Shown in pieces: positions 28,741-55,908 of a stretch of 64,000 bases of DNA. This DNA is from Spirochaetia bacterium. GTDB taxonomy: Bacteria; Spirochaetota; Spirochaetia; DSM-2461. A model generated the notes under the pieces. That model saw only the letters and a program-made list of their open reading frames with translations. It had not been told where the DNA came from and searched no databases. Within the stretch, counting starts at the first letter, position 1; every line of letters begins with the position of its first letter. The DNA lies in contig CAXXIA010000001.1 in assembly GCA_963666985.2 (NCBI GenBank), positions 480,001 through 544,000 on the forward strand. Reading direction: 5' to 3'. Made by a program: the position numbers and the translations under genes.

Positions 28741-29892
28741 ATGAACTTTTCACGCCCGTCGGCCCATGGCAATTCCGAATCGAGGCCTCCGGCTTTTCGG
28801 TCGGCCGGGCCTCCCGTTATCGTTGAGAGCGGAACCGGCATGTTCTGCCGGCCTGATTGTGCGCAGCTCTCCGAAAAAGACTGCGGGCGAAAAGCCTTCA
28901 GTTCAGCCAAAGAGGCCCTGGAATGGGGCTTCAATCCCTGTCCCGACTGCAGGCCCATGGATGCCGCCGCGGTTTCAGGCGCCGCCGAGTCCGCGTACGG
29001 AACGGACGGTGAGGACGGTGAATATTCCGATGCGGCGGATCGCACCGGCACCGCCGTGAATCCTCACTCGGCCCTTATCGCGCTTATGGACGATATCGCA
29101 TCGGATCCGCTGTTTCGAATTGGAAAGAGCGGTCTGCGGGAACGGGGAATTATGCCGGATTACATCGATCGTCTTTACGGCGATGCGTTCGGAGTGGATT
29201 TCCAGGGTTTTTTGCGCATGAGGCGGCTGAATACGCGATTCGGAGCCGTTCTCTATTCGCCTGAAAACGGCTCCGAAAGCGACGGATTGAGCCGGAGCCG
29301 CTATGGCGATGGAAATACGGGAGCATCCTTTCTCTCGACTCGCGGCTCTGCTGATTCGGACGCCGCCGATGCCGATTTCAGAACCGTGAATCGGCTGAAA
29401 ACGCCTCTGGGTCCCGTTATGGTCGCGGCATCATCCAAAGGAATCTGCATGCTCGAATTTGCCGAAAGGCGAACGATGGAAAAACGGATAGAGGCGATGG
29501 AAAAGGAATCCGGGGTGAGCTTCAAAACGGGGATAAGTCCTTTCTTCGCTCCATTGGCGGAAGAACTCAATGCCTACTTCAAGCGGGAATTAAAAGAATT
29601 TTCCGTGCCTCTCGATATCGGAGGAACGGATTTTCAAGTCGGAGTCTGGGAGGAATTGAGGCGCATTCGGTGGGGGGAGACGAGAACCTATGCCCGGCAG
29701 GCCGAGGCCTTGGGAAATCCAAAGGCCGTCCGAGCAATCGCCCGAGCCGACGGTGAGAATCCCATCGGTATTCTTATTCCCTGTCACAGGGTTATCGGGT
29801 CGGACGGTTCCTTGACCGGTTTCAGCGGCGGCCTTTGGCGCAAGGAGTTTCTGCTGCGATTGGAATCGGATCAGGGAGATCTTTTCGAATGA
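28741..29892 (+). CDS. ada: Ada-like protein: Zn-binding N-domain, degenerate AraC HTH and O6-methylguanine-DNA methyltransferase
   Basis: TGMFCRPDC..GFNPCPDCRP; GTDFQVGVWEEL, AVRAIA and IPCHRVIG active site. Confidence 0.85.
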   Translation: MNFSRPSAHGNSESRPPAFRSAGPPVIVESGTGMFCRPDCAQLSEKDCGRKAFSSAKEALEWGFNPCPDCRPMDAAAVSGAAESAYGTDGEDGEYSDAADRTGTAVNPHSALIALMDDIASDPLFRIGKSGLRERGIMPDYIDRLYGDAFGVDFQGFLRMRRLNTRFGAVLYSPENGSESDGLSRSRYGDGNTGASFLSTRGSADSDAADADFRTVNRLKTPLGPVMVAASSKGICMLEFAERRTMEKRIEAMEKESGVSFKTGISPFFAPLAEELNAYFKRELKEFSVPLDIGGTDFQVGVWEELRRIRWGETRTYARQAEALGNPKAVRAIARADGENPIGILIPCHRVIGSDGSLTGFSGGLWRKEFLLRLESDQGDLFE

Positions 29893-31004
29893 GAAGAATG
29901 AATCGAAGCGCCGGGAACCAGCGCGGTGCGGATAAGAGCGCCGGAGAACACGGAGGGAACATATACGGCGGAAAAAATCGCGGCGGCAAATCGGGTGAAG
30001 TTGTTCTTGCGTTCACCGAGGATGAACTGCGCGCGATTCAATCCGATCCCCGGCCGCCTTTTCGGATTACCGCTCACTGGCTTTCGCTTCTCGACGGCAC
30101 CCCGGAAGATCCGCTGCGCCGTCAGGCTCTGCCTTCGACGTTCGAAGAGAGGAACATGCCCGGAGAGCGGCCCGATCCTTTGGGCGAGGGTGATTATTCT
30201 CCACTGCCCCGCCTTATCCGTCGCTACGCAGACAGAGTGTTGGTTGTAACGACGGGCCGATGCGCGCTTTATTGCCGCCATTGTTTCCGGCGACGGCTTT
30301 CCGGAGATGATTCGGGAGATATAAGCGGAAAAGAGGCGGCGGACATCGCTTCCTGGCTTTCCGGGCATCGGGAAGTCAAAGAGCTTCTGCTTTCCGGCGG
30401 AGATCCGCTGATGCTCGGTGAGAGAAGATTATTGGATCTTATCGATACGTTCAGAGAGGCGCGGCCGGATATCGTTATCCGGCTGGGAACGCGGATACCC
30501 GTGGTGGAGCCGTCTCGGATTACGCGGAATACGGCCGCGGCGCTCGGCAGGCGAAGACCTCTCTGGGTTGTTATTCAGGCGAATCATCCGCGGGAGCTGG
30601 ACCCGGAATGTCTGAAGGCTCTGGACCGCCTGCAGCGGCGGGGTTTGCCGGTGGTGAATCAGGCTGTGCTGCTTCGCGGCGTGAACGATGATGTGAATGT
30701 TCTGGAGGAACTTTCCCGGAAACTGGTCGCGGCCGGAGTGAAGCCGTATTATTTGTTTCAGGGTGATGCGGCCGAGGGGACCGGGCATTTCAGGCTGCCC
30801 CTGGAAGAGGCGCGGAATCTGGCGGACAATCTTCGTTCTCGGCTCAGCGGCCTTGCCATGCCCTCGTTTGCCGTTGATATTCCGGGAGGCGGAGGTAAGG
30901 TCCCTCTGGCGCCCGATTATGTTTTGGGACGGGAAGAGGCCGGCTGGCGTCTTCGCACGCCCGACGGAACCGAGGGGATTTATCCCGATCCTCCGGAAGA
31001 ATGA
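29889..31004 (+). CDS. KamA-family radical SAM protein (lysine 2,3-aminomutase / EpmB-like)
   Basis: CALYCRHCFRR, LSGGDPL, NHPREL, NQAVLLRGVND, PYYLFQ and PGGGGKVP (PLP lysine). ATG 29889 overlaps the ada stop. Confidence 0.92.
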   Translation: MRRMNRSAGNQRGADKSAGEHGGNIYGGKNRGGKSGEVVLAFTEDELRAIQSDPRPPFRITAHWLSLLDGTPEDPLRRQALPSTFEERNMPGERPDPLGEGDYSPLPRLIRRYADRVLVVTTGRCALYCRHCFRRRLSGDDSGDISGKEAADIASWLSGHREVKELLLSGGDPLMLGERRLLDLIDTFREARPDIVIRLGTRIPVVEPSRITRNTAAALGRRRPLWVVIQANHPRELDPECLKALDRLQRRGLPVVNQAVLLRGVNDDVNVLEELSRKLVAAGVKPYYLFQGDAAEGTGHFRLPLEEARNLADNLRSRLSGLAMPSFAVDIPGGGGKVPLAPDYVLGREEAGWRLRTPDGTEGIYPDPPEE

Positions 31005-38265: not shown

Positions 38266-38711
38266 TGGCCGTTATCAGAGACGCCGAAATAAGTGATATC
38301 CCCGCCATGGCGGAACTTTTGGAAGAACTCTTCATGAAAGAGGCCGATTTTGTTCCGGACGGACAAAAGCAGGAACACGGATTGGCGTTGCTGCTGGAAT
38401 CCGATGCCGTCGTCCTCTGCGCCGACTCTTGCGGCGAGCTGGTGGGCATGGCGACGATGCAGTTTTCAGTATCCACCGCCGAAGGAGCGGTCGGCGGCCG
38501 GATTGAGGACGTGGTTGTCAAAAGGAATTTTCGCGGCGAGGGGATAGGGAAGCGTTTACTGGAAGAAATGATTTCACGAGCAAAAGCTTCGGGCTGCACT
38601 CGATTGCAGCTTGCGGCCGATGAGGAAAATATCCCGGCCCATGGATTCTATCGTCATTTGGGATGGGAAAGAACGAATCTTCGGCTATGGCATTTTTTTA
38701 CCGAACGATAA
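38265..38711 (+). CDS. GNAT-family N-acetyltransferase
   Basis: IEDVVVKRNFRGEGIGKRLL and NIPAHGFYRHLGW. Confidence 0.9.
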   Translation: MAVIRDAEISDIPAMAELLEELFMKEADFVPDGQKQEHGLALLLESDAVVLCADSCGELVGMATMQFSVSTAEGAVGGRIEDVVVKRNFRGEGIGKRLLEEMISRAKASGCTRLQLAADEENIPAHGFYRHLGWERTNLRLWHFFTER

Positions 38712-39543
38712 ACGTTCTGTTTTCATGGACGAAAATGGATCGATTCAGATAGAGAAACAGAGCGTACACCAGGGTTCGGCGTTCCACGTCCTTGCCCATC
38801 TGAATCAGTTCCCGAATGGACGAGCGGTCGCTGACCGGCAGAACATTCTGCGCGATGATGGGGCCCTGATCCAAATCCTCATTGGCGAAATGAGCGGTGG
38901 CGCCGATAACCTTCACGCCTTTATACCAGGCCTGATGGTAGGGCTTGGCTCCTTTGAACGCAGGCAGAAATCCGTGATGGATGTTGATAACCCGGTTTTC
39001 CCAGGCACGGGTAAACTCAGCGGAGAGAATCTGCATGTATCGGGCCATTACGACAAGATCGATTCGGTATTCGCTCAAGATCTTCTGCATTCGATCTTCG
39101 GCTTTTTCCTTCCCTTCCGAATAATCGATTTGGTAAAAAGGAATGCCGAATTGTCCTGCCACAGGCTCGTTGATAAGGTGGTTCGATATAATCACGGGGA
39201 TTTCGCAGTCCAGCTCTCCGTCCCGATACTTCAGCAGCAGTTCCCACAGGCAGTGATTTGTTTTACTGACCAGAATGGCGACACGTTCTTTTTTATTCGT
39301 GTTGTACAGGCTCCATTCCATATTGAATTTTTCAGCCGTCGGAGCAAATGCGGCTTCGAATCCCTTGCGGTCGAAAGGGGCCGGAGCGTCGAATATGCCT
39401 TTGAGCATGAAAATACCGACATCCGAAGCGGTATGCTGGGTTAAATCCACGACGTTGGCGCCGTTTTCAGCAATGACTTGAGTAACGCAGGCAATGATGC
39501 CTTTCTGATCCGGGCAGGAAATCTTTATAATAAATCGGTCCAT
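38698..39543 (-). CDS. purU: Formyltetrahydrofolate deformylase
   Basis: ACT domain CPDQKGI; ARYMQILS, INIHHGFLPAFKGAKPYHQA, GATAHF and LDQGPII. Confidence 0.96.
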   Translation of the reverse strand: MDRFIIKISCPDQKGIIACVTQVIAENGANVVDLTQHTASDVGIFMLKGIFDAPAPFDRKGFEAAFAPTAEKFNMEWSLYNTNKKERVAILVSKTNHCLWELLLKYRDGELDCEIPVIISNHLINEPVAGQFGIPFYQIDYSEGKEKAEDRMQKILSEYRIDLVVMARYMQILSAEFTRAWENRVINIHHGFLPAFKGAKPYHQAWYKGVKVIGATAHFANEDLDQGPIIAQNVLPVSDRSSIRELIQMGKDVERRTLVYALFLYLNRSIFVHENRTFIVR

Positions 39544-39544
39544 A

Positions 39545-40225
39545 TCAAACCTCCGAATGTTTTTCCCAGTGCTTATCCTTCACTTTCGCGACAAGAAGAC
39601 GCATGTTCAATCCCATCATCATCAGCGAGAGGACAAAGCTTCCGGTTACGACCGTCCAGGGATGTCCGCCCAGTGAAATGTTTTTCCAAATCGGAATGTC
39701 CATGGTTAAGTTCACGGTCAAAGTGAGAAAAGGAACCAGGAGAATGAAGAAAATCGGCGACCATTGCGTCAGCCAAAGGCCTTTATTGCGCATGAACAGA
39801 AGGGCCAGTCCGCCTCCGATGAGAACCGAAAGAAGAATCTCAAGAGGGATGAACCAGAGGGAGACAAAGAGCATTGTGGAAACGCCGCCGCCGCCTTTAA
39901 ATCGGTACCAGATGGGAAATATATGTCCCAGGACGGCGGCGATACCCATGGAGTAAAGAACTCCGTAATCAAAGGCCTGTTGTCCGTCGAAAAGAAATCG
40001 CTGAACGAAAAGGATGGGAATGATCGCTTTGAGTCCGTCGAGAATCATCACGAAAATACCCCAGCCGCGGCCTACGGTGCGCCCCATATTGGATGCTCCG
40101 GGATTTTTATTCCCCATGGTTCGTATGTCTTTTCCCGTAACGAGTTTCGTAAAGATGATGGCGAAATTGATACCGCCGATGAGGTATGCGGCAAGAATTA
40201 CGATCAAGGCTATGAGGATGGTCAT
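39545..40225 (-). CDS. plsY: Acyl-phosphate:glycerol-3-phosphate acyltransferase
   Basis: YLIGGI, DIRTMGNKNPGASN, DGLKA and GHIFPIWYRFKGGGGVST. Confidence 0.9.
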   Translation of the reverse strand: MTILIALIVILAAYLIGGINFAIIFTKLVTGKDIRTMGNKNPGASNMGRTVGRGWGIFVMILDGLKAIIPILFVQRFLFDGQQAFDYGVLYSMGIAAVLGHIFPIWYRFKGGGGVSTMLFVSLWFIPLEILLSVLIGGGLALLFMRNKGLWLTQWSPIFFILLVPFLTLTVNLTMDIPIWKNISLGGHPWTVVTGSFVLSLMMMGLNMRLLVAKVKDKHWEKHSEV

Positions 40226-40302
40226 GTTCTCTCCTTTCCGTGTTGGGAATCCGTCATTAAGAAAGCGGCGTATTATTGTTCGCGCCGGCGGGGTTGCCCG
40301 GA

Positions 40303-41892
40303 TTATTCCAGACTGATGATTAAGGCCGCCTTCGTCTGCCCTCCGAAATGATGCACGATTTCGGCCCCGGGCATGGCTTTACTCAGAACTTGAAGCACGG
40401 CTTCGAGATTTCTCGGATCAAATCCGTCGCCATGGTAAACGGCACAGTCGCTGAACTCATCCGTTTCCAGTTTTTTCAGCGCTTCGGATACGGCGAGGGA
40501 AGGAGATAACCCTTTTCCGAGGATTTCGTCCGAATGAGTGACGAACCAGTCGTTTTCTTCCAAATCCAATTCGCCGAATCGCGTATCCATGCCGCATTTA
40601 TAGACGAACAGTCCAACGGCATCATCAATGAAATCCATCATGGATTCCACGTTTTTTACCGCGGATTCTTCTTTGCTGAATCCGTAAGATGCGGTAATTC
40701 CCTGAATAACGCTTTTTGTCGGAACGATGGAAAGCGATTTGGAGGAATCGTTTTTTGCGGCAAGAACCGACGGGATGATGTTTGAGTTGTTCGGAAGAAC
40801 GATGACATGATCTTCTTCTATGTGTTCAAGAGCTTCAAGGATTTCTTCCGGAGAGGGAAGAACGTCTCCGTAAAGAAAGCAGTCCGTTATTTCCAAATCT
40901 TCAAAGATGCGTCCGAAACCTTCTCCCGGAATAAAAGAGAGTACGGCGCATTCGCCTTCATCACCGCTGCCGGCCGAAACCAAGCGGGTTTGTTCGTCCA
41001 TGTCGTCGACTTTCGTCCGTTCGAGGTATCCTGATGTTTTCAGCCGCTCAAAGACGGCTTCCGGTTCGTTCGTATGGATGTGAACTTTCAGCAAATCCTG
41101 TTCATCCACAAGGGCGATGCTGTCGCCCATGGAACCGAGCCATTCGGAGAGATCGGCATCTTTAGGCCCTTCGCGGCGAACGATCGCTTCGGTGCAGTAG
41201 CGGTAATGCGGGCGTTCTTCGGCACTGTTGGCCGAAGGATCGGGCTGGAAACGATAGTCGGCTTCTTCTTCCTCGACGGGAAGAGATCCGGTAAGTGCGG
41301 CGATCATGCCTCGAATAATAAAGAGAAGTCCGAGCGCGCCCGAGTCGATGACTCCGGCGCGCGCCAAGATGGGCAGTTGTTCCGGCGTTTTGAAAAGGGC
41401 CGCTGTTCCCGATTCTTCGGCGATTCTCAGAGCCTCAACCACATCATCGCCCGCGTAATCGGCAAGGGTTCGGCTTATCGCGGCGAGAATGCTGATCATG
41501 GTTCCTTCGGTCGGCGAGAAAAGGGCGCCGTTGACCGTATAGCTGCCGTTGGCGATGCCGGCCGCAAGATTTCTCGGAGTAAGAAACGCATCCTTCCCAA
41601 CGGCTTCGAAGAAACCGAAAAAGAATCGAGCCAGGATAAAGCCCGAATTCCCGCGGCTGCAGCGGTTGAGTTCGGCGACGAAATCCCGGCTCATTTCCGA
41701 AAGCGTTATTCCCTCGGCTTCTGTGAGATTTTCCACGCCCGCCGCAAGGGAAGATGTCATATTCCCGCCGGTATCTCCGTCGGGAACGGGAAACACATTA
41801 AGTCGGTCGAGCAGCTTGCGGTTCAGTTCCAGGTAGTCCAATCCGCCCCGTATGGCCGAGGCGAGCTGATCCGGCGACAGTTGTTTTACCAT
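40303..41892 (-). CDS. DAK2-domain protein (fatty acid kinase FakA-like)
   Basis: LNVFPVPDGDTGGNM, RGNSG, EGTM, DSGALG, YCTE and KVHIHTNEP. Confidence 0.92.
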   Translation of the reverse strand: MVKQLSPDQLASAIRGGLDYLELNRKLLDRLNVFPVPDGDTGGNMTSSLAAGVENLTEAEGITLSEMSRDFVAELNRCSRGNSGFILARFFFGFFEAVGKDAFLTPRNLAAGIANGSYTVNGALFSPTEGTMISILAAISRTLADYAGDDVVEALRIAEESGTAALFKTPEQLPILARAGVIDSGALGLLFIIRGMIAALTGSLPVEEEEADYRFQPDPSANSAEERPHYRYCTEAIVRREGPKDADLSEWLGSMGDSIALVDEQDLLKVHIHTNEPEAVFERLKTSGYLERTKVDDMDEQTRLVSAGSGDEGECAVLSFIPGEGFGRIFEDLEITDCFLYGDVLPSPEEILEALEHIEEDHVIVLPNNSNIIPSVLAAKNDSSKSLSIVPTKSVIQGITASYGFSKEESAVKNVESMMDFIDDAVGLFVYKCGMDTRFGELDLEENDWFVTHSDEILGKGLSPSLAVSEALKKLETDEFSDCAVYHGDGFDPRNLEAVLQVLSKAMPGAEIVHHFGGQTKAALIISLE

Positions 41893-42755
41893 TATTCATC
41901 CATAAGCATGTAGCCGAGTCCGAGATAGTCCGGGCCCGCATGGGGCAAATTGCTGTGGCTGCATCCGTAGAGAACCACGTCGACATCGCCTTCAAGCTTT
42001 TCAATTTCGAATTTGAGTTCTTGGGCTTCTTCTTGGTGAGGACCGTGAACGCTGATCAGCGCCTTCAAAGGTGCGTTCGGCCATAATTCGCGGTCCTGTT
42101 CGATGAAATCGATGAATCTCTTAACGGCCTGAATCGGTTTTTTTACTTTCCCGGCGGATTTCAAGTTGCCCGGGGGATCGGTGGCGCTCAGAAGGGGAAT
42201 GATTTTCATGGCCGAGCCCATAACCGCCTTGGCGGTTCCGATGCGGCCGGTCCGTTTGAGGTAGAAAAGGTCATAAACAAGACCGTGATGGCGTGTGCGA
42301 AGAGGAGCGGCTTTCAGAAAGGCATCCATTTCCTCTCGGGAGGCACCTGCCTTTATCCGCAGGGCGGCTTCTTTTACGATGATGCTGTAGCCTTCCACCA
42401 GATGACGCGAGTCGTAGTATGTAATGTCCAGTTCCGGATGTTCTTGAATGACTTTTGTTACAACTTGGGCTGTCGCCGATGAGGCCGTGGCGGACATATG
42501 AAGGGTAAGGATGGGTTCGTCGGGATGACGGCGATAGATTTCCAGAAGGTCTTCTTCCCGGAGACCTGACGTGGAAACGTTTCGGTTCTTGTCTTTTAAG
42601 ATCTTTCGGATTTCTTCCTTGGCCTCATCGCTCATGCCGGAATCCACATCAATGGGTTTTCCGTCGACATACATGGGGTAATTGCAGACCTCAACTCCCC
42701 ATTCGGCGAATTCAGCGGCCGGTATTTGTGCTGCCGTATCGGCTACCAATACCAT
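41892..42755 (-). CDS. DegV-family fatty-acid-binding protein (FakB-like)
   Basis: VADTAA, STSG, DSR, LFYLKRTGRIG and HAGP; TAATG overlap with the FakA-like gene. Confidence 0.88.
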   Translation of the reverse strand: MVLVADTAAQIPAAEFAEWGVEVCNYPMYVDGKPIDVDSGMSDEAKEEIRKILKDKNRNVSTSGLREEDLLEIYRRHPDEPILTLHMSATASSATAQVVTKVIQEHPELDITYYDSRHLVEGYSIIVKEAALRIKAGASREEMDAFLKAAPLRTRHHGLVYDLFYLKRTGRIGTAKAVMGSAMKIIPLLSATDPPGNLKSAGKVKKPIQAVKRFIDFIEQDRELWPNAPLKALISVHGPHQEEAQELKFEIEKLEGDVDVVLYGCSHSNLPHAGPDYLGLGYMLMDE

Positions 42756-42766
42756 TGAATACCTCC

Positions 42767-44023
42767 TTATTCTTTGCGGCGTGCCGGTTTCTCCGGCATT
42801 TCAACGATTATATCTGTTCTCGCTTTGGCGATACAGGGGTGAAAATACCCCAATTCCTTATCTCTCCGTCTGACTCCCGCAGGTTCCGAAATATAGTCCA
42901 CATCTCCTTGAACAAGAAGACTCCGGCACCAGCCGCAGGTTCCCGTACGGCAGAAGGAGGGAGGATTCAGACCGGCCCGTTCCATGGCCACAAGAACCGT
43001 TTCGCCCGGATCGGCCGGAATCGTTATCTCCGAACGGCCGGGGATTCGAACGGTGAGTTTTTTCGCGGCTTCTTCCGTTCGTTTCCCCGATTGACCGTAA
43101 TCTTCCCGCCGTATGCGGCGGGGTTTGTTTTTCAGGGATGCAATTTCTTTATTCAGGTGGGTATGCATGGCCTCGGGACCGCAGATAAAAAAAGTCGCTT
43201 CTTTTTCTTCCATGGCATCGGCCAAAATGTCTGCGGTAATAAAGCCCCGGCGGCAGGATTGTTCGGCGTTCGGATTTTCGGATCGGCCGGAATCTTGCGG
43301 AGAGGGGGGAGCGTAACGGTTTTCCGAAAGAACGCAAATCCTTCCGAACCGATCGGAGTGAATTTTTTCCCATTGACGGAAATCTGCATCAAAAAGAAGT
43401 TCTTCCGAGGTTCTGGAACCCTGTATGAGAACGATGTGAACATCACTTTCCGTATCGTCCAGTAAATCGCCGATGATGGAACGAAACGGTGTCACACCGG
43501 ATCCGCCCGCAATACATATAAGAAGTGGAGAGTCCCGAAGCGGCTCGTAAGTGAAAAATCCCTGAGGCGCCGATGTTTTTACGGAAGTACCGACAGTCCA
43601 CTCCCGTCCTATGAGGCCGGCGATGAAAGGGCTTTCGTCCGTTCTTACGGTAATTCGATAAGCGTTTTCTTTTTCCGACTCGTTCGGTGTACCGCTGAGA
43701 GAGTAGGGCCGGCTTATTCCATGTCCGTCGTGTGTGTCCACTTCCACGGAAAGATACTGACCTGCCCGGAACGGCGCCGGTTCCGTGTCGTCGTGCGCCG
43801 GTTTCAGAACATAGGTTCTGGTTGAAGGACTTTCTTTTCGAATCTCCGCGATAACGAGATTTTGCGATAACGGATGGAGTGCCTGAGCCAAAGAATTGAT
43901 GCAGCATTCCGTCGGTTTGGTTTTCGGAGCACGCCGCATCCTTCGACGCCGTTCGGTTATTGGAGCGATGAATCGTAAAAGATCTCTCAGCGGACCGCGT
44001 TTAATAATGATGGAGTTGCTCAT
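42767..44023 (-). CDS. FNR-type FAD/NAD(P)H oxidoreductase with C-terminal [2Fe-2S] domain
   Basis: FRAGQY, RPYSLS, IAGGSGVTPF, FICGP and CRTGTCGWC...HPC. Confidence 0.92.
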   Translation of the reverse strand: MSNSIIIKRGPLRDLLRFIAPITERRRRMRRAPKTKPTECCINSLAQALHPLSQNLVIAEIRKESPSTRTYVLKPAHDDTEPAPFRAGQYLSVEVDTHDGHGISRPYSLSGTPNESEKENAYRITVRTDESPFIAGLIGREWTVGTSVKTSAPQGFFTYEPLRDSPLLICIAGGSGVTPFRSIIGDLLDDTESDVHIVLIQGSRTSEELLFDADFRQWEKIHSDRFGRICVLSENRYAPPSPQDSGRSENPNAEQSCRRGFITADILADAMEEKEATFFICGPEAMHTHLNKEIASLKNKPRRIRREDYGQSGKRTEEAAKKLTVRIPGRSEITIPADPGETVLVAMERAGLNPPSFCRTGTCGWCRSLLVQGDVDYISEPAGVRRRDKELGYFHPCIAKARTDIIVEMPEKPARRKE

Positions 44024-45537
44024 CGGTTCATATCCGCCATCGTTTTTTCCGCCGCATTCCTGCCTGAGTTTAAGGCGCTTCCGTATCCGTGCGCGATGGA
44101 TGCGTTCCCGCCGCAGAAGCGGAGATTTTTATAGAAGCGTTCCCGGTTTCTTGAAAGAACACGAGGGACAATCCCGTCCCACGGCTCGGCCTCATACCCG
44201 TAAACCGTTCCGTCCCATGATCCGACATAGCGGGAAAATGTCGGAGGCGCCGCGGTTTCAATTTCTTCGATTCGCCCTCGAATTTTAACGCCGACGGCCC
44301 GTTCAAATTGATTTATCGCCAGTTCGGCGAAACGCCTTTTTTCTCTGTTGTATGTTTTTGATGTAACATCCGACCATGCTTCGGGCCGCGTTCCAAGGGT
44401 AAGAGACAGAATCGTGGTTCCCGGAGGCGAGGCCTTGGGATCGGCCGCGTTTAAACAAACCGAAGCCTGCAGAGGATTGGGATCGTGCCGGTTTAAAAAC
44501 TTCGCTTCAAGTTCCGGTGTGTTCATATGCGGCGCGATGAAATAGGAATAATCGGTCAGCCCGATTTTTTCTCTATCGGCATCCAGGCCAAGATAGACCA
44601 CGAAGAAGCTCAGTCCGTTGCGCCGTGCGTTCGCGACTTTATAGACCTTTTGCGGAGCATGTTTATTATTATTGAAGTTGGCGAAAATCCGATGAGGAAG
44701 GATGTTCGAAACAACCCGTCCGCAATGAACGGATTCGCCTCCGGCAAGAGTAACCCCCGTGATGTTCCTGCCTGATGTTTCAATGCCCGTAACTTCCGTA
44801 TTAAATCGGATTTCTCCGCCTTCGGCGCGGATGGCGGAAACAAGAGATGCCGCCATTCCATGCGATCTTGAACGGGGAATAACGGCGCCGTAATACAGAT
44901 AGGAATAGACCATGGAGGCCCATAGTGAAAAGGACACTCTGTTTGTAGGCACCCCGAGATAACACCAATACGGGTAAATCAAATCCCTGGCCTCGGGACT
45001 TAAGCCTATCTCGTCCGCGACTTCATCGGTAACGGCTCCGCCCGTACGGAGAAAATTTCCAAAATCGCCGAAAATTTTCTTTACCGACGGACGAGGATTT
45101 TTCCGGAGATATTCGAAGGCCTCAAAGGTTTCGGCGCAGACCGCCATGAAATCGCGGATTTCTTTTTCTCCGTATCCGATGTGCTCCGAAACGGCGTGCG
45201 TGAAAGCCTCAGGACCGAACGGAGCTCTGAAATCTGTTTTCTTGTCCGTCAGAAGAAGACGATAGGCTTCCGGAACCGGCAGGAATTCGAGACTTTTATC
45301 AACCTCTTTAAGAAAATCAACTATGGGGGAATTCGCCATTTCATGAAGAGATGTTTCAAATTCAAAACGGCCCCTGATAAAGGATGTCGCGAAGCCCCCC
45401 GCTAGATTATGACGTTCCAATACAAGAACTTTTATTCCGGCTTTGGCCAAATCGTAAGCGGCCGTAAGTCCGCCGAGTCCGGCGCCGATCACAATCACTT
45501 CCGGTGATACTCTGCTTTTCATCAGCTCTCCGAGCAT
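44020..45537 (-). CDS. Phytoene desaturase (CrtI) / retinol saturase-family flavoprotein
   Basis: VIGAGLGGL, LERHNLAGGFATSFIRGRFEFE, FVVYLG, PPG, TFSRY..GTVYG and GYGSALNSG. The start may be ATG 45522. Confidence 0.88.
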   Translation of the reverse strand: MLGELMKSRVSPEVIVIGAGLGGLTAAYDLAKAGIKVLVLERHNLAGGFATSFIRGRFEFETSLHEMANSPIVDFLKEVDKSLEFLPVPEAYRLLLTDKKTDFRAPFGPEAFTHAVSEHIGYGEKEIRDFMAVCAETFEAFEYLRKNPRPSVKKIFGDFGNFLRTGGAVTDEVADEIGLSPEARDLIYPYWCYLGVPTNRVSFSLWASMVYSYLYYGAVIPRSRSHGMAASLVSAIRAEGGEIRFNTEVTGIETSGRNITGVTLAGGESVHCGRVVSNILPHRIFANFNNNKHAPQKVYKVANARRNGLSFFVVYLGLDADREKIGLTDYSYFIAPHMNTPELEAKFLNRHDPNPLQASVCLNAADPKASPPGTTILSLTLGTRPEAWSDVTSKTYNREKRRFAELAINQFERAVGVKIRGRIEEIETAAPPTFSRYVGSWDGTVYGYEAEPWDGIVPRVLSRNRERFYKNLRFCGGNASIAHGYGSALNSGRNAAEKTMADMNR

Positions 45538-45692
45538 TGAAGTCCGTCTTTTATTCGGGAAACTCCCCTCAAGTGCAACCAGTATAGTCAGTTCCGCCTG
45601 ATTTGTGATACAAATTACTTAAAAATGTCCGGGAAAAAGTATTTTGTAAGTGCTAATCACGGATTACGATAGAAAAAAAACGATTAAGACGA

Positions 45693-46628
45693 TTGCGTTA
45701 TATTGATATAATCGATCCATCGCGGAGCCAACCTGTGTTTTATAGACGAAAGGATGCGAAGCTCATTAAGGGCCAGAGCATGATCAATCGTATGTTTCCT
45801 TACATGATGAGAGATAAAATCGGATCTCAAGTCTATGTCCCTCTGAAACTCAACCTTGATAATGCGGCGGAATACATCCGTGAAAAAGCCGAAAAACATG
45901 GACGGCATGATTTCAGCTATTTCGACATTCTTGTCGCGGCCGTTATGAGAGCCATTGCTGAGAAACCCGAGCTGAACCGATTTATTAAAGGACGCCGGTA
46001 TTATCAGCGGCGCAGCCTCAGCGCGACTTTTATCGTAAAGAAAAACCTCACCGAAGAAGATGAAGAGCGTCAGGCCATCATAACCTTCGATCCGGCCGAT
46101 ACTTTGGATGAATATTCGGAGAAACTTCGCGCGGCAATTGCCGCCATGCGGAGCAAACCCGAGGACGAGGGCGAGAAGATTATGAAAGTTCTTTTCGCTT
46201 TGCCGTCTAAAATAATCGACTTGTTTACTCTGTGGCTGATGAGGCTTGACGACCGCGGAATGATGCCTCGATATCTCGCCGAGTCCGACGGTATGCATAC
46301 CAGCATATACATTGCCAATCTGGGCAGTATCGGTTTTGAAGATGCGCCGTTCCATCATTTGTATGAATGGGGCACGGGCTCCGTTTTTCTTACTTTCGGC
46401 CGACTCCATCGGGAAAGGTCGTTCAGCAAAGACGGGACGGAGAAAGTACACTTGGTTATCAGAGCCGGTGTAACCATTGATGAACGAATCGGCGAGGGGC
46501 TCTATTTTTCAAAAGCCATACGGCTTTTCAAAAAATACGTTGAGAATCCCAGACTCCTTGAAGAGTGGCCCGATCTTCCGGCTCTGTGGGAGAAGATGAA
46601 AGAGCCGGGAAAAACAATTCGCATCTGA
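45693..46628 (+). CDS. Stand-alone 2-oxoacid dehydrogenase E2-like acyltransferase domain protein
   Basis: PELNRFI, IANLGSIG, PFHHLYEWG and TIDERIGEG; no lipoyl domain. Confidence 0.8.
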   Translation: MRYIDIIDPSRSQPVFYRRKDAKLIKGQSMINRMFPYMMRDKIGSQVYVPLKLNLDNAAEYIREKAEKHGRHDFSYFDILVAAVMRAIAEKPELNRFIKGRRYYQRRSLSATFIVKKNLTEEDEERQAIITFDPADTLDEYSEKLRAAIAAMRSKPEDEGEKIMKVLFALPSKIIDLFTLWLMRLDDRGMMPRYLAESDGMHTSIYIANLGSIGFEDAPFHHLYEWGTGSVFLTFGRLHRERSFSKDGTEKVHLVIRAGVTIDERIGEGLYFSKAIRLFKKYVENPRLLEEWPDLPALWEKMKEPGKTIRI

Positions 46629-46786: not shown

Positions 46787-47920
46787 TTAAGCGATGGCCA
46801 GACCCGTATCGAGTTCCAAATCATCCGGGAGCCATTCGGCAACTTCGGAAAGAGGCCGCATAAAGACGGTTCCCGTCTGTTCGATATATTTGGCATCATG
46901 GATCTTAAAAATGATCCGGCTGTCCGCAAGTCCGACGATCTCAATCTTACCGATTGGATGACTCATGACGTACTTAAAACGCTTGGCCATTCCCGAAAGG
47001 TGACGTTTGGCCTCTTCGATGATTCCGATACCTTCGGCAATAGGTATTTGGAAACTCTTTTGAACCCGTTTTACAGGCCTGCATTGAAACACGTAATACG
47101 GCGCGATTCCCGCGGAGACAAGATCGTTCATCAAGTCGGCCATAACGTCCGGATCGTCGTTGATGCCTTTGAGCAGGACCGTTTGGCAGCTTACCGCCAC
47201 TCCCGCTAAGCTCAACCGGCGCACAGCTTCAATCGTTTCCGAAACAATTTCTTTGGGATGATTAATATGAGTCACAACATAAATTCGCGGCTTTGAGGGA
47301 TCGCTGTTATGGCGTGCAAAAATATCCAGGAGTTTTTTATCATCCAGTATGCGTTTGGGAAGAGATGTCGGTGTTTTCGTTCCGAATCGGATAAAGCGGA
47401 TATGCTGAATTTTTGAGATTTTCCGTAGAAAAGATTCGATGATATCCGTGGAAAGCATCAATGAATCACCGCCGGTGATAAGAATATTGTTGATCTCCCG
47501 ATGCGCGGCGATATAATCCAGCGCGTCGTCGAAATTGCACAAAACCTCGGCGTTGGTGAGTCCTACCATCCTCTTTCGGAAGCAGTATCGGCAATAAATG
47601 GCACAAATATTCGTCGATAAGAGCAGCACCGTCGGTTCATATTTATGCTGAAGTCCCTTGGCTTTTGTGTTCTCGGCCTCACCGCTGGTATCGTAATCAC
47701 CCGAAAGATCGAGTTCCTCAATGTTCGGCAAGTACATTCTTCGGATCGGATCGTTCGGGTCGTCGGAATCCATCAGATCCATGACATGCCGAGTTACACG
47801 GATCGGATGAATCTTGGCAATCTCATTCAGCTGCAGCTTTTCTTTCTCCGTGAGATTGACGTATTCGCTCATTTCCTCGACTGTTGTAACCGTGTGGCAT
47901 AGGATATTTTTCCAGGACAT
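46787..47920 (-). CDS. Second KamA-family radical SAM protein (divergent subfamily)
   Basis: GLQHKY, CAIYCRYCFRKR, TGGD, HINHPKE, QTVLLKGIND, PYYVFQCRP and MSHPIGKIEI. Confidence 0.92.
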   Translation of the reverse strand: MSWKNILCHTVTTVEEMSEYVNLTEKEKLQLNEIAKIHPIRVTRHVMDLMDSDDPNDPIRRMYLPNIEELDLSGDYDTSGEAENTKAKGLQHKYEPTVLLLSTNICAIYCRYCFRKRMVGLTNAEVLCNFDDALDYIAAHREINNILITGGDSLMLSTDIIESFLRKISKIQHIRFIRFGTKTPTSLPKRILDDKKLLDIFARHNSDPSKPRIYVVTHINHPKEIVSETIEAVRRLSLAGVAVSCQTVLLKGINDDPDVMADLMNDLVSAGIAPYYVFQCRPVKRVQKSFQIPIAEGIGIIEEAKRHLSGMAKRFKYVMSHPIGKIEIVGLADSRIIFKIHDAKYIEQTGTVFMRPLSEVAEWLPDDLELDTGLAIA

Positions 47921-49372: not shown

Positions 49373-50962
49373 ATGGATGCGGTGAAGATTATCGAAAACG
49401 GACAAGCCATCATGGGGATGGAGCTTGGTTCCACGAGAATAAAAGCCGTCTTAATCGGACCGGACAACAGTCCCTTGGCATCCGGAGGACACGGATGGGA
49501 AAATTCCCGAATTGATGAAATCTGGACCTATCCGCTGGAAGAAGTTCTCTCCGGTATCGCCGCCGCCTACGCGGATTTGAAGAATGATGTTCAAAAAAAG
49601 TATGGAATCAATCTGAGATCCTTCGCGGCCGGTGGATTCAGCGCCATGATGCACGGATATCTTCCTTTTAACGCATCGAATGAACTTATCGCTCCTTTTA
49701 GAACCTGGCGAAACAATATAACCGGACAAGCCGCGAAGGAATTGACCGATTTACTTCATTATCCGGTCCCGCAGCGATGGAGCATTGCACATCTTCATCA
49801 AGCCGTTCTCAACGGAGAAGATCATGTCGGCGAGATTGCGTATCTGACAACTCTCGCCGGTTATGTCCATTGGAAATTGACCGGGAAAAAGGCATTAGGC
49901 GCCGGAGATGCCTCCGGAATGTTCCCCATCGACAGTGATACGCTTGTTTTCGATCCGAAACGCCTTGAGAAATATGATGCCCACATCGCCGATAAAGGAT
50001 TCGGATGGAAACTCGGTGATCTTCTTCCCGAAATCGTACCCGTTGGAGAGGAAGCGGGAAGGCTGACCGAAGAAGGCGCGCGTCTTTTGGATCCTTCCGG
50101 AGATCTTGTGGCGGGAATCCCCATTTGTCCTCCCGAAGGTGATGCCGGAACGGGAATGGTGGCCACGAACAGCGTTCGTGTTCGAACCGGAAACGTTTCG
50201 GCCGGAACCTCCGTTTTTGCCATGCTCGTCATGGAAAAAGAACCCTCGAAGGTTCATGATGAAATCGATCTGGTAACCACGCCCGACGGGAAACTTGTCG
50301 GGATGGCGCATTCCAACAACTGCACTTCGGATTATGATGCCTGGATCAATCTGTTCGGTCGGGCCGCTCGGGCTATGGGGGCCGAGTTTACCACTCCCGA
50401 ACTCTATGACACACTTCTGGAACTTGCTTTGAAGGGAGATCGGGACTGCGGAGGTCTTCTGGCCTACGGGTATGTATCCGGCGAACACCTCACCGGATTC
50501 GGCGAGGGACGTCCGCTTTTCGTCCGGCATCCGGAGAGTCCGCTGACTTTGGAAAACTTCATCAGGACGCATCTTTTCACATCATTATGCGCATTACGCA
50601 CCGGACTGAACGTTCTCATGGAAGAAGAAGGCGTTAAGGTTGATGAAATCCGGGGGCACGGAGGCTTCTTTAAAACCGCCCGCGTCGGTCAACGAATTAT
50701 GGCGGCGGCAACAGGAACGCCGGTGAGCCTTTTGGAAACCGCGGGTGAAGGCGGTGCCTGGGGCATGGCGCTTCTGGCATCGTATATGCTTCGTGAGAAA
50801 CGGGAGCTGAGTCTTCCCGATTTTCTGGACGATGCGCTTTCCGGCGGGGTGGGAGAAGCCATGAAGCCCGATCCTGATGATGTCGCCGGTTTTGAGGCCT
50901 TTTTCAAGCGCTACCATAAGGGGCTGCCCATCGAATCGGCGGCCGTGGAATCGCTCAGCTAA
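49373..50962 (+). CDS. araB: FGGY-family sugar kinase, probable L-ribulokinase
   Basis: GMELGSTRIKAVL, SAMMHGY, FRTWRN, PPEGDAGTGMVATN and GEGGAWG; operonic with araD and araA. Confidence 0.85.
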   Translation: MDAVKIIENGQAIMGMELGSTRIKAVLIGPDNSPLASGGHGWENSRIDEIWTYPLEEVLSGIAAAYADLKNDVQKKYGINLRSFAAGGFSAMMHGYLPFNASNELIAPFRTWRNNITGQAAKELTDLLHYPVPQRWSIAHLHQAVLNGEDHVGEIAYLTTLAGYVHWKLTGKKALGAGDASGMFPIDSDTLVFDPKRLEKYDAHIADKGFGWKLGDLLPEIVPVGEEAGRLTEEGARLLDPSGDLVAGIPICPPEGDAGTGMVATNSVRVRTGNVSAGTSVFAMLVMEKEPSKVHDEIDLVTTPDGKLVGMAHSNNCTSDYDAWINLFGRAARAMGAEFTTPELYDTLLELALKGDRDCGGLLAYGYVSGEHLTGFGEGRPLFVRHPESPLTLENFIRTHLFTSLCALRTGLNVLMEEEGVKVDEIRGHGGFFKTARVGQRIMAAATGTPVSLLETAGEGGAWGMALLASYMLREKRELSLPDFLDDALSGGVGEAMKPDPDDVAGFEAFFKRYHKGLPIESAAVESLS

Positions 50963-50987
50963 GCGCGGACCGGGCGGAAAGAGGCAT

Positions 50988-52241
50988 ATGGCGACCCTGA
51001 AGGACATTGCGGATCGGGCCGGTGTCTCCATAGGCACCGTGGATCGGATTATTCACGACCGGGGACGGTATTCCAAAGAAACCGCCGAGAAGGTTCGGCG
51101 GATTTTGGAAGAAACCGACTACAGGCCCAATGTCATGGCCCGGCATCTTTCCAAATCCGGTACATGCAGGCTCGCCGCTCTGATTCCCGAATCCGGCCAA
51201 GACAGCGGGTACTGGGCCGTACCTCTCAACGGCATGCGTTTGGCCGAAAAGGAACTCGAACCTTTCGGATTGAGCCTTGAAGTGATTTTTTTTGACCGGT
51301 TTCGAAAGAACGGCCTTATCGACGCGGGAGGCACTCTGATCGGCCGGAATGATATCGACGGGCTTCTGATGGCTCCCATGAGACCGGATGAGGCGGAAGA
51401 TCTGCTGGAAAGGCTTCATTCGAAAATCCCGGTTGTGTGCTTTGATACCGATCTTCCGGGAACGAAGCGTATGAGCTATATCGGCCAGGATTCCTATAAA
51501 AGCGGACATCTGGGAGCGCGGCTCACGATGATGAGCGCCCGCAGCGCCCGCAGCGAAAACGGCGCAAACAGCATTCACAGCATCCGCAGCGCCCGCAGCG
51601 AAAACGGCGCAAACAGCATCCACAGCGCCTGCAGTGCCCGCAGCGAAAACGGCACAAACAGCATCCATAGCGCGATCGGCGATCCCCGCGGGCCGAGCGG
51701 GAAACAAGAAAGAAGCGGGAAAAGCGTAAAACCTGACGAACCTACAACCGTCCCAACCCCCCCGGCGAAATATCTGGTTGTCGCACCGATGGACGACAAC
51801 GTGCATCTTGAAAAGCGGCGGCGCGGATTCATCGATGGCGTAAACAATATCGGCGGCAGCTCTGAAGTGCTGCGGATTACCGTGGAGTCGGACGGCGATA
51901 CCGCCAATTTTTACAAACTCCTGGATGAACATATTACATCGGAAACGGCCGGTATTTTCGTTGTGAACGCCTCAACACACTTTATCGCCGAGTATCTGAA
52001 TGAGCGAAATCTGTGCATCGCGCTAGTCGGTTACGACCTGGTTCCTGAAAACAAGAAATGGCTGGAGAAGGGCTTAATCGATTTTCTACTCACCCAGAGA
52101 CCGGTACAGCAGGGGTATCGGGCCGTTCGCTACCTTTTTCGGAAAATCGTGATGGGCGAGGATTGCCCGGACCATGAATACACGCCCATCGACATCGTGG
52201 CGCGTGAAAACCTGGAATACCTGGACGAGGAGAATCAATGA
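50988..52241 (+). CDS. LacI-family regulator with repeat-containing insertion
   Basis: MATLKDIADRAGVSIGTVDRIIH..YRPN HTH; YIGQD, VGYDL and QRPVQQGY. ATG 50988 follows GAGG. Confidence 0.92.
   Translation: MATLKDIADRAGVSIGTVDRIIHDRGRYSKETAEKVRRILEETDYRPNVMARHLSKSGTCRLAALIPESGQDSGYWAVPLNGMRLAEKELEPFGLSLEVIFFDRFRKNGLIDAGGTLIGRNDIDGLLMAPMRPDEAEDLLERLHSKIPVVCFDTDLPGTKRMSYIGQDSYKSGHLGARLTMMSARSARSENGANSIHSIRSARSENGANSIHSACSARSENGTNSIHSAIGDPRGPSGKQERSGKSVKPDEPTTVPTPPAKYLVVAPMDDNVHLEKRRRGFIDGVNNIGGSSEVLRITVESDGDTANFYKLLDEHITSETAGIFVVNASTHFIAEYLNERNLCIALVGYDLVPENKKWLEKGLIDFLLTQRPVQQGYRAVRYLFRKIVMGEDCPDHEYTPIDIVARENLEYLDEENQ
51534..51668 (+). repeat. 3 x 45-bp in-frame tandem repeat built of 9-bp subunits
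   Basis: AGCGCCCGC AGCGCCCGC AGCGAAAAC GGCGCAAAC AGCATTCAC and two near copies (SARSARSENGANSIH). Confidence 0.95.
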
Positions 52242-54516: not shown

Positions 54517-55908
54517 ATGAACCTTGAACGATTACTGGAACTTGCCGTAACCACCCGACTTATCAGGAGCGGAGCGGATTTACTGCGGCGAGTTCCTGAA
54601 ATCCTTGATGAGGCTCTGGAAAGAGCCGGGAACGTCGCCGACTCTTCCGGTCTTGACGCCGCTGCGGACGGGCGAAAAGAACTCGGGCCGATACTCATCG
54701 CCGATGAGAACACATGGGAAGCCGCCGGCCGGGAAGTTGAAGCGGCCTTTAACAGCGCAGGCCGGCCCGTATCCTTTGTGAAGCTCTTTCCGGGATCGCC
54801 CCCGCTTAAGGCCGAATACAGACACGTCACGGCTCTTGTGGAGGAACTGCACAGCCGCGATGGTTTTGTTATAGCCGTGGGAAGCGGAACCGTAAACGAT
54901 TTGGTGAAACTCTCCTGCGGCGAAATGAAGCGGCCCTACGGTGTTGTGGGCACCGCGGCATCCATGGACGGATATTCCTCTCAAGGTGCGGCCGTTCTCA
55001 AGGAGGGACTGAAGCAGACCCTGAAATGCCCGGCTCCGGTGTTTATCGTTGCCGATACTCAGGTTCTTGCGGAAGCGCCGCCGGGAATGTCCGCCTCGGG
55101 CTATGCCGATTTGGCCGCGAAGATTCCGGCCGGACTGGACTGGATTCTGGCGGATCGTCTCGGCGCCGACCCGATCGATCCTGTCGCCTGGGCCATGGTA
55201 CATGAAGGTTTGGAAGATCGTTTGGCCCCGGCCGCGGGAGTCGGACGGGGAGACGGTGAGGCGTTGAATTTCTTGTTCGAGGGACTGACCGCAACCGGAT
55301 GCTCCATGCAGTACTATGGAGAATCCAGGCCCGTGGCCGGAGGTGAGCATCAGTTTTCCCATGTTCTGGAGATGGAAGGCTGGCAATATAAAGGTCGTTC
55401 TCCCTCGCACGGTTTCAAAGTGGGTGTGGGATCTTTGGCCTCGCTGAGAGTATTCCGTGAGCTTCTTGCTTTTCTCGAATCGGGTGAAAGGCTTGGACCG
55501 CAAAAAATTGAGGAACTTGTTGCCGCCTATCCTTCGCTTGAGTCCGAATTGTCCGAAGCGATGAGTCTTTTCGGAGATTCTCCTGCTTTGGAATCCGTTA
55601 AGGCGGTTCTGGCGGAAAAAAGGCCGTCTCCGGACGTGCTTCGGACGAGATTATCTGTACTTGAAAGGAATAGGGAAGGCATTATCACTGATTTAAAGGC
55701 CCGAATGCCCGATTATGAAACTTTTCGCGGGCGGCTGGCCGCGGCAGGTGCGCCTTCGTCGGCCGCCGATATCGGTTTGGACGGAGCAAAAGTGGTACGA
55801 ACCCTGAAATCCGCCCGAATGATCAGAAACCGCTACGGCGGGCTGGATTTGGCGTACGAGCTGGGTCTGTTCGATTCGATTACGGAGAAAGTCGGCCGGG
55901 AGATTTGA
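54517..55908 (+). CDS. araM: sn-glycerol-1-phosphate dehydrogenase (AraM/EgsA-like)
   Basis: AVGSGTVNDLVK, TAASMDGYSS, SGYADLAAK, SRPVAGGEHQFSH, HGFKVG and IRNRY. Confidence 0.85.
   Translation: MNLERLLELAVTTRLIRSGADLLRRVPEILDEALERAGNVADSSGLDAAADGRKELGPILIADENTWEAAGREVEAAFNSAGRPVSFVKLFPGSPPLKAEYRHVTALVEELHSRDGFVIAVGSGTVNDLVKLSCGEMKRPYGVVGTAASMDGYSSQGAAVLKEGLKQTLKCPAPVFIVADTQVLAEAPPGMSASGYADLAAKIPAGLDWILADRLGADPIDPVAWAMVHEGLEDRLAPAAGVGRGDGEALNFLFEGLTATGCSMQYYGESRPVAGGEHQFSHVLEMEGWQYKGRSPSHGFKVGVGSLASLRVFRELLAFLESGERLGPQKIEELVAAYPSLESELSEAMSLFGDSPALESVKAVLAEKRPSPDVLRTRLSVLERNREGIITDLKARMPDYETFRGRLAAAGAPSSAADIGLDGAKVVRTLKSARMIRNRYGGLDLAYELGLFDSITEKVGREI

Follow-up and report, generated by a model that had tools for sequence, protein, structure and literature searches.

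The nearest characterised arrangement in which a flavoprotein of the CrtI superfamily (COG1233) is accompanied by a ferredoxin and an NADH reductase is the limonene dehydrogenase CtmAB of Castellaniella defragrans, which is clustered with CtmE, a [2Fe–2S] ferredoxin that the organism needs to grow on limonene, and with CtmF, an NADH:ferredoxin reductase (PMC4109377). A comparable grouping is found in a stretch of 64,000 nucleotides (hereafter the window) from a Spirochaetia bacterium (GenBank assembly GCA_963666985.2, contig CAXXIA010000001.1, positions 480,001 to 544,000 of the forward strand), where a CrtI-superfamily flavoprotein and an FNR-[2Fe–2S] reductase share one strand with genes for a DegV/FakB fatty-acid-binding protein, a FakA-like kinase, and a variant of the acyltransferase PlsY. 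The five genes form a conserved cassette, and its redox pair is older and more widespread than the cassette itself. We propose tentatively that the cassette encodes a saturase that uses NAD(P)H to reduce C=C bonds of acyl chains, together with an acyl-phosphate-dependent acylation of an acceptor other than glycerol-3-phosphate (G3P) to which the saturase is coupled.

The window resembles the CtmAB–CtmEF cluster in joining a COG1233 flavoprotein to ferredoxin and NADH-reductase functions, and CtmAB, which works without oxygen on a hydrophobic alkene, shares both features with the chemistry proposed for the cassette. Unlike the cassette, CtmAB is a heterodimer with a covalent-His motif, its ferredoxin and reductase are separate proteins, and it serves oxidative terpene catabolism, with no Fak or PlsY genes in the account consulted. 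The steroid Delta24-desaturase of Sterolibacterium denitrificans, a relative that like CtmAB binds flavin covalently at a His motif, is similar to the proposal in performing flavin chemistry at a lipid side-chain C=C bond under anoxia; it differs in having two subunit types, covalent flavin mononucleotide semiquinones, and an unknown acceptor, and no FNR partner appears in the account consulted (PMC11061730). The fold of the flavoprotein is also shared by CrtI, CrtISO, and RetSat. RetSat reduces a C=C bond and CrtISO needs reduced flavin, and we know of no dedicated FNR-[2Fe–2S] partner for any of the three. The conjugated-linoleate reductase CLA-R of Butyrivibrio fibrisolvens is similar in mass to the flavoprotein. 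Like the proposed saturase, it uses NADH to reduce a double bond of a fatty acid in an anaerobe, but it is described as belonging to none of the KEGG, COG, or Pfam families, in contrast to the clear Pfam matches of the cassette protein, which argues against identity of the two, compared here by description only (as cited in PMC4478896). The FakA/FakB systems of Bacillota have in common with the cassette a three-domain FakA, its catalytic Asp pair, Cys, and His-x-His, and the carboxylate-site residues of DegV (PMC9136124, PMC10848957), whereas in the cassette these genes share an operon with the redox pair and the rebuilt PlsY, its DegV is divergent, and a second system with a DAK2–DegV fusion lies beside a canonical plsY. 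Each part of the cassette belongs to a known superfamily, two parts fall outside the named families, and no characterised counterpart of the combination was found; neither the flavoprotein–FNR pair nor the cassette is described in the literature searched, which covered few subscription papers.

The six open reading frames (ORFs) of the original prediction, namely those of the cassette and a neighbouring E2-like acyltransferase domain, are recovered with the strands and junctions given there, and Pfam and NCBIfam back the domain calls (Table 1). The flavoprotein and FNR genes overlap by ATGA, an 11-nt gap separates FNR from DegV, DegV and FakA overlap by TAATG, and a 77-nt gap leads to the PlsY-like gene, 1 nt past whose stop codon purU starts. 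Among 26 loci chosen for matching cassette genes, 16 carry the complete order of flavoprotein, FNR-[2Fe–2S], DegV, FakA, and PlsY-like genes on one strand within 5.8–6.2 kb; they represent 13 genomes from six Spirochaetia families, the source genome included (4.86 Mb, 93.1% complete, with Spirochaeta and Sediminispirochaeta metagenome-assembled genomes as closest named relatives), and three metagenome contigs. In the remaining ten the order is kept among the genes present until the contig ends, one of them having a different PlsY upstream. The conserved unit that had been suggested for this window is therefore not peculiar to this genome; Bacillota gene neighbourhoods are sparsely sampled in these comparisons. 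Identity across the cassette loci spans 34–71%, the lowest values to the window being 45% for the flavoprotein, 34% for FNR, 43% for DegV, and 38% each for FakA and the PlsY-like protein, and the flanking genes differ between genomes. Within the family of the source genome, 8 of 36 genomes have the flavoprotein and 7 of 37 have the PlsY variant; the two sets coincide apart from G007, where the contig breaks off within fakA. In a FastTree tree of 143 flavoproteins (from 160, with 17 near-copies of one genus dropped), the cassette forms one clade of 25 rows with a support of 99, of which 20 have DegV and five are cut by contig ends; the single clade indicates that the linkage has one origin and has persisted since. 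The five-gene linkage is not a product of chance, the cassette being kept together in free-living spirochaetes, and its members very probably act in one pathway; the association with Fak genes counts as a single evolutionary event, however many genomes show it. The fakA gene of G013 (L002:11743-13236) is read as two in-frame ORFs with one stop codon between them, either an error or a real split, and an epimerase-like gene, an SDR gene, and a CAAX-protease-like gene lie upstream of some cassettes.

Table 1. Genes of the cassette and its immediate neighbours, in window coordinates
Feature	Position	Strand	Remarks
CrtI-superfamily flavoprotein, 505 aa, uncharacterised FNR-coupled subfamily	44020..45537	-	PF01593; proposed catalytic subunit
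FNR-[2Fe–2S] reductase, PaaE/Hcr domain order, 418 aa	42767..44023	-	PF00970, PF00175, PF00111; proposed electron supplier
DegV/FakB fatty-acid-binding protein, 287 aa, divergent subfamily	41892..42755	-	TIGR00762 score 126.9, above the cut-off of 99.7
FakA-like kinase, 529 aa	40303..41892	-	all three domains present (PF02734, PF21645, PF13684)
Non-canonical PlsY paralog, 226 aa	39545..40225	-	acyl-phosphate site kept, G3P site rebuilt
Stand-alone E2-like acyltransferase domain	45693..46628	+	neighbour only, outside the cassette
purU	38698..39543	-	TIGR00655 score over cut-off; outside the conserved unit

The partnership of the two redox proteins extends well beyond the cassette. There are 151 distinct flavoprotein homologues scoring at least 300 bits, 12 of which are unscorable at a contig end; an FNR gene accompanies all the other 139, being adjacent in 129, fused in 7, and behind a tandem paralog in 3, although close relatives are over-represented in this sample and do not count as independent cases. 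A ferredoxin and NAD(P)H reductase alongside, as in the CtmAB type, is thus universal among these 139, and the two different flavoprotein subunits of that type are not seen in the cassette. Among weaker homologues (<300 bits), eight of nine have no FNR by the adjacency test, and one of these eight adjoins a shorter reductase that binds flavin adenine dinucleotide (FAD). Fusions occur in both orders, FNR-first in Syntrophales and flavoprotein-first in P0228 and P0252. The family profile matches 104 of 401 Spirochaetota genomes (E 1e-40) and 48 of 301 genomes in the phylum of a Syntrophales genome (E 1e-60), and the source labels of the family include Clostridia, Ruminococcus, and Treponema. We regard it as nearly certain that the flavoprotein and FNR work together. 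The FNR protein is of the PaaE/Hcr type, in which FAD and NAD domains are followed by a plant-type [2Fe–2S] domain, and all 22 aligned homologues retain its four cluster cysteines; it reaches the cut-off of no named equivalog and carries a family-specific N-terminal extension. An acidic residue after the NAD-domain serine is a sign of NADH use, and such a residue, found in most FNR rows, suggests NADH as the electron source. Separately, a distant CrtI-like paralog is fused behind a NirB-type NADH/rubredoxin-reductase/BFD ([2Fe–2S]) module in two Spirochaetota genomes (L160:3359-6250, L161:7750-10650).

Outside the cassette, an acyl-CoA ligase, acyl-CoA dehydrogenase, enoyl-CoA hydratase, or FadR-like gene lies within 6.5 kb of 31 of the 72 pairs with enough flank, a count that has no background control and whose rows are kin. 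Neighbours seen at single loci comprise fabD-F-Z, a PlsC-type acyltransferase with DUF5692, YhhN, a DAG-kinase-family gene, a Hydrolase_4 protein, and a serine-palmitoyltransferase-like gene. The pair thus stands beside lipid genes in many lineages, in agreement with the original prediction, and its substrate is likely to be a lipid, with the class of lipid less sure. In L151:4429-9937, the flavoprotein–FNR pair directly follows fabD-fabF-fabZ in a genome that also has FabV. The idea taken from this locus, that the pair substitutes for the enoyl reductase of type II fatty acid synthesis, was rejected, as FabV is present in five of five genomes tested, G443 included, so that the pair is not needed in this role; FabF and FabV are both present in the source genome. 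One or two DUF5692 membrane proteins flank the pair in L155, L156, and L162, and DUF5692 is also reported to lie close to homologues of a gene of a putative isoprene-reductase operon (PMC10134865). An uncharacterised glycyl-radical enzyme with its activase, often together with aldehyde:ferredoxin oxidoreductase, lies near the pair in L004:14465-17506 and in L074, L084, L085, and L093; these enzymes were rejected as cassette parts because they are confined to other clades.

The structural model of the flavoprotein (predicted local distance difference test score, pLDDT, 89.1) has the FAD-binding CrtI/amine-oxidase fold, with the CrtI-type desaturase 4REP as the best match (Z 34.0, root-mean-square deviation (rmsd) 3.3, 464 residues aligned, template modelling score 0.77); the fatty-acid isomerase of P. 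acnes (2B9W) also matches the model (Z 23.7, rmsd 3.7, 400 aligned). The protein scores well below the curated cut-offs of CrtI (TIGR02734, 103.4 against 238.1) and CrtISO (TIGR02730, 101.5 against 586.9), and no RetSat model is among its 25 best NCBIfam rows. Phytoene synthase, noted earlier as missing from the window, is missing on a larger scale: the whole 93.1%-complete genome gives no match to SQS_PSY (PF00494, crtB), in a search whose control was positive in 8 of 14 genomes. A carotenoid role, for which a true CrtI with crtB elsewhere in the genome would have spoken, was therefore rejected. The covalent-flavin His motif of CtmAB and the Delta24-desaturase is found in none of 160 flavoprotein sequences. 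The family has a conserved motif of its own, in which His65 is invariant in 149 of 151 sequences and by the CrtI alignment seems to lie two residues later than the His of the covalent motif, a placement that is uncertain. There is one flavoprotein gene per cassette, and tandem paralogs precede a single FNR in 3 of 139 rows.

The Fak half of the cassette looks active as judged from its residues. The FakA-like protein has the Asp pair, the Cys, and the His-x-His (Asp38/Asp40, Cys240, and His282/His284 of FakA) that are catalytic in S. aureus FakA (PMC9136124), and it scores under the curated cut-offs of TIGR03599 (373.8 against 396.1) and NF038248 (230 against 975). In DegV, the carboxylate-site residues described for FakB/DegV (Thr, Ser, Arg, and His; PMC10848957) appear to be kept, by eye in pairwise alignments. 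A second lipid-scavenging locus (L033:7669-11024; G000:C2, ~1957.7-1961.0 kb) comprises a canonical plsY, a DUF1295 protein, and a divergent DAK2–DegV fusion, with YhhN nearby; a locus similar to it directly adjoins the cassette in G034 (L025), as does a fakA-plsY locus in L041. PlsX gave no match in the 93.1%-complete source genome.

The last gene had been predicted to encode an ordinary G3P-acylating PlsY, and this assignment is not supported, as the G3P residues are changed and a canonical PlsY is encoded elsewhere in the genome. The variant aligns to Aquifex aeolicus PlsY (5XJ5-9; PMC5700162) over residues 6–149 only; the second PlsY of the source genome (contig C2) aligns over its full length and has every motif, and variants are split from canonical PlsY by a branch with 100/100 support. 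Cassette copies keep the fold together with Asn37, Arg45, His92, and the glycine loop Gly102/103/105 (A. aeolicus numbering), the acyl-phosphate site and Asn37 being represented in the variant by Asn41, His101, and Gly111/112/114, with Ser45 in place of Thr41. In contrast, all 20 cassette copies have Gly in place of Lys104, and 17 of the 20 have Asn in place of Ser35; none of the 18 full-length rows has the HxxN motif, and each carries an inserted SxGGH motif. Of the G3P clamp (Ser35, Arg45, Lys104, Asn180, His177), Arg is kept, and the variant scores 98.4 against a cut-off of 137.2 for TIGR00023. The A. aeolicus mutants S35A, K104A, and H177A have been shown to retain 4.8, 7.4, and 6.5% activity (PMC5700162). 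These changes in G3P-binding residues suggest that the acceptor may not be G3P, which we consider rather probable. PlsY proteins with the rebuilt pocket are also seen with no redox pair beside them, in L258, L259, L261, L268, and L269, in L260, and in L263–L267 and L272, their contexts being fakA/degV, a position after an acyl-CoA ligase, and a position beside GNAT proteins and an unassigned 260-aa membrane protein.

Taken together, these features could be assembled into a four-step scheme. FNR would oxidise NAD(P)H, probably NADH, and pass single electrons via its [2Fe–2S] cluster to the FAD bound by the CrtI-fold protein, a step whose partnership comes from gene context and whose chemistry we infer. 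The reduced flavoprotein would then hydrogenate a double bond of a long acyl chain, its substrate being free, FakB-bound, or in the membrane. By homology and with the catalytic residues kept, FakB would present the fatty acid and FakA would make acyl-phosphate; from its residues, the PlsY paralog may finally acylate a non-G3P acceptor, such as a 2-acyl-lysophospholipid, so that scavenged lipid would be remodelled and not built from scratch. We infer the substrate and the direction of the redox pair. From the free energy of oleate hydrogenation, transfer from NADH to the alkene is downhill by about 60 kJ/mol, so that saturation is favoured and desaturation into NAD+ is uphill; net reduction by the pair is slightly favoured on balance, and the hydrogenation would probably proceed without oxygen. 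In its most specific form, the scheme is an undescribed anaerobic lipid remodelling, in which the pair is a fatty-acyl saturase, a missing enzyme of biohydrogenation, and the rebuilt PlsY uses acyl-phosphate with a new acceptor (a lysophospholipid, a long-chain alcohol, or a sphingoid amine); this form we hold to be a speculative possibility.

Several observations weigh against the coupling of a saturase to a new acylation. Besides the uncontrolled count of lipid neighbours, the Fak link is confined to one clade, with DegV in 19 of 89 pairs with enough flank, and oleate hydratase, a possible supplier of intermediates, was not found in five cassette genomes. The CtmAB–CtmEF system is oxidative despite its reductase partner, so that such a partner leaves the direction unfixed. 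In the PlsY variant, the C-terminal half aligns ambiguously and two alignments disagree on its register, only the absence of HxxN being firm; the model confirms the PlsY fold only and is unreliable past residue 150, from which pLDDT is <50, and an invariant His188 might replace His177. Moreover, canonical PlsY was not found in six of the 13 complete-cassette genomes, one of these six being 96% complete on a single contig; five had one, and two were outside the check. This last counterpoint is weakened by the class as a whole, as PlsY of any kind was not found in 226 of 301 Spirochaetia genomes, from which it follows that the class has another G3P route and that a lone variant need not acylate G3P. 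A 384-aa acyltransferase (L303:1216-2370) was tried as a candidate for this alternative G3P acyltransferase and matches neither a solved structure nor an NCBIfam model.

An alternative that we judge unlikely is that the redox pair reduces the acyl acceptor itself (a sphingoid base, a fatty or isoprenoid allylic alcohol, or an alkenyl glycerol) in the manner of RetSat, and that the rebuilt PlsY acylates it from FakAB acyl-phosphate. One molecule would then account for both the changed acceptor pocket and the redox pair, and at single loci the pair does adjoin YhhN, a DAG-kinase-family gene, or a gene resembling serine palmitoyltransferase (506 bits, cut-off 640); two non-cassette PlsY variants adjoin GNAT proteins, and the epimerase-like, SDR, and CAAX-protease-like genes upstream of some cassettes point the same way. 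Such neighbours are, however, scattered over one or a few loci each, with none within the cassette, and beta-oxidation neighbours are commoner; DUF2229 (plasmalogen-synthase type) was not found in the source genome, although it is present in four of four other cassette genomes tested.

Equally improbable in our estimate is the absence of net reduction, with FNR merely priming the flavin of a cis-trans or positional isomerase that resembles CrtISO, or of an allylic dehydrogenase or hydroxylase that resembles CtmAB or the Delta24-desaturase. The precedent of CtmAB (COG1233), which oxidises limonene although clustered with a ferredoxin and an NADH:ferredoxin reductase (PMC4109377), the flavin semiquinones used by the Delta24-desaturase (PMC11061730), the one-electron donation of an FNR-[2Fe–2S] protein, and the fold shared with the P. 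acnes isomerase all speak for it. Against these stand the complete absence of the covalent-His motif from the 160 sequences, the usual single flavoprotein gene in place of a heterodimer, and the strictly 1:1, often fused donor, which suggests stoichiometric electron flow.

The route of the original prediction, in which a PlsY with compensating pocket changes transfers edited and phosphorylated fatty acids to G3P, fares somewhat worse and appears quite improbable. Arg45 and the acyl-phosphate site are kept, the invariant Asn207 and His188 could stand in for the lost residues, and no other PlsY was found in the six cassette genomes mentioned above; yet in the enzyme of known structure a substitution at any one of Ser35, Lys104, or His177 removes >90% of activity (PMC5700162), five cassette genomes, that of the window included, also have a canonical PlsY, and the rarity of PlsY in Spirochaetia means that a lone variant need not serve G3P. 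That the redox pair and the Fak–PlsY genes are two independent lipid modules, joined once and co-regulated with no shared metabolite, agrees with the single origin of the linkage, with fakA-degV-PlsY-variant loci lacking an adjacent redox pair (L258, L268, L269), and with the occurrence of the pair alone in most lineages, but is very improbable given that order and tight spacing are kept across six families down to ~35–45% identity while the flanks change, and that every cassette-clade member with enough flank has DegV.

Two neighbours of the cassette are best regarded as bystanders. The E2-like gene, which the original prediction had counted in the unit, was rejected as a member, being close to the flavoprotein in only 2 of 160 distinct loci, the window and a distant plasmid paralog that sits in a fatty-acid-synthase-like cluster; its orthologs in G011 and G007 (72–73% identical) are on contigs other than that of the cassette, upstream of which PadR or SDR genes take its place. 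The 2-oxoacid dehydrogenase E2 family has a C-terminal catalytic His motif, and the E2-like protein, which consists of the catalytic domain with no lipoyl domain and has Glu at the position of this His, falls outside that family. A promoter-like site at 45684-45712 overlaps the TTG start of the ORF, and one ortholog begins at about residue 13, so that the true start may lie downstream; the promoter scan as a whole was at chance level (6 sites found against 7.0 expected). A second stand-alone E2-like gene (L034:7564-10187; G000:C1, ~419.6 kb) directly precedes an acyl-CoA ligase, a pairing that recurs in L312 and L313. The purU gene was likewise rejected, as it is near the cassette only in the source genome and G011. 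Elsewhere in the window, a 45-bp tandem repeat (51534-51673; 3.1 copies, 90% match) lies in frame within a LacI-type regulator (50877-52241), two KamA-family radical SAM genes (29835-31004 and 46787-47920) are 16 kb apart, and an AraM/EgsA-like gene (glycerol-1-phosphate-dehydrogenase-like; 54517-55908; 144 bits, under the cut-off) ends an apparent arabinose operon, no such gene being seen with the cassette in other genomes.

According to a 2026 review, it is poorly resolved which hosts and which enzymes carry out particular steps of biohydrogenation (PMC13464031), and the flavoprotein–FNR family offers a concrete candidate for such steps. As FakB binds free fatty acids, the cassette is the clearest tie of the family to them and guides the first choice of substrate, and its five genes fit within 6 kb, which makes joint expression possible. 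The PlsY paralog, if its acceptor is new, would widen a family known for one reaction. The redox family also has members in syntrophic fatty-acid degraders and gut Clostridia.

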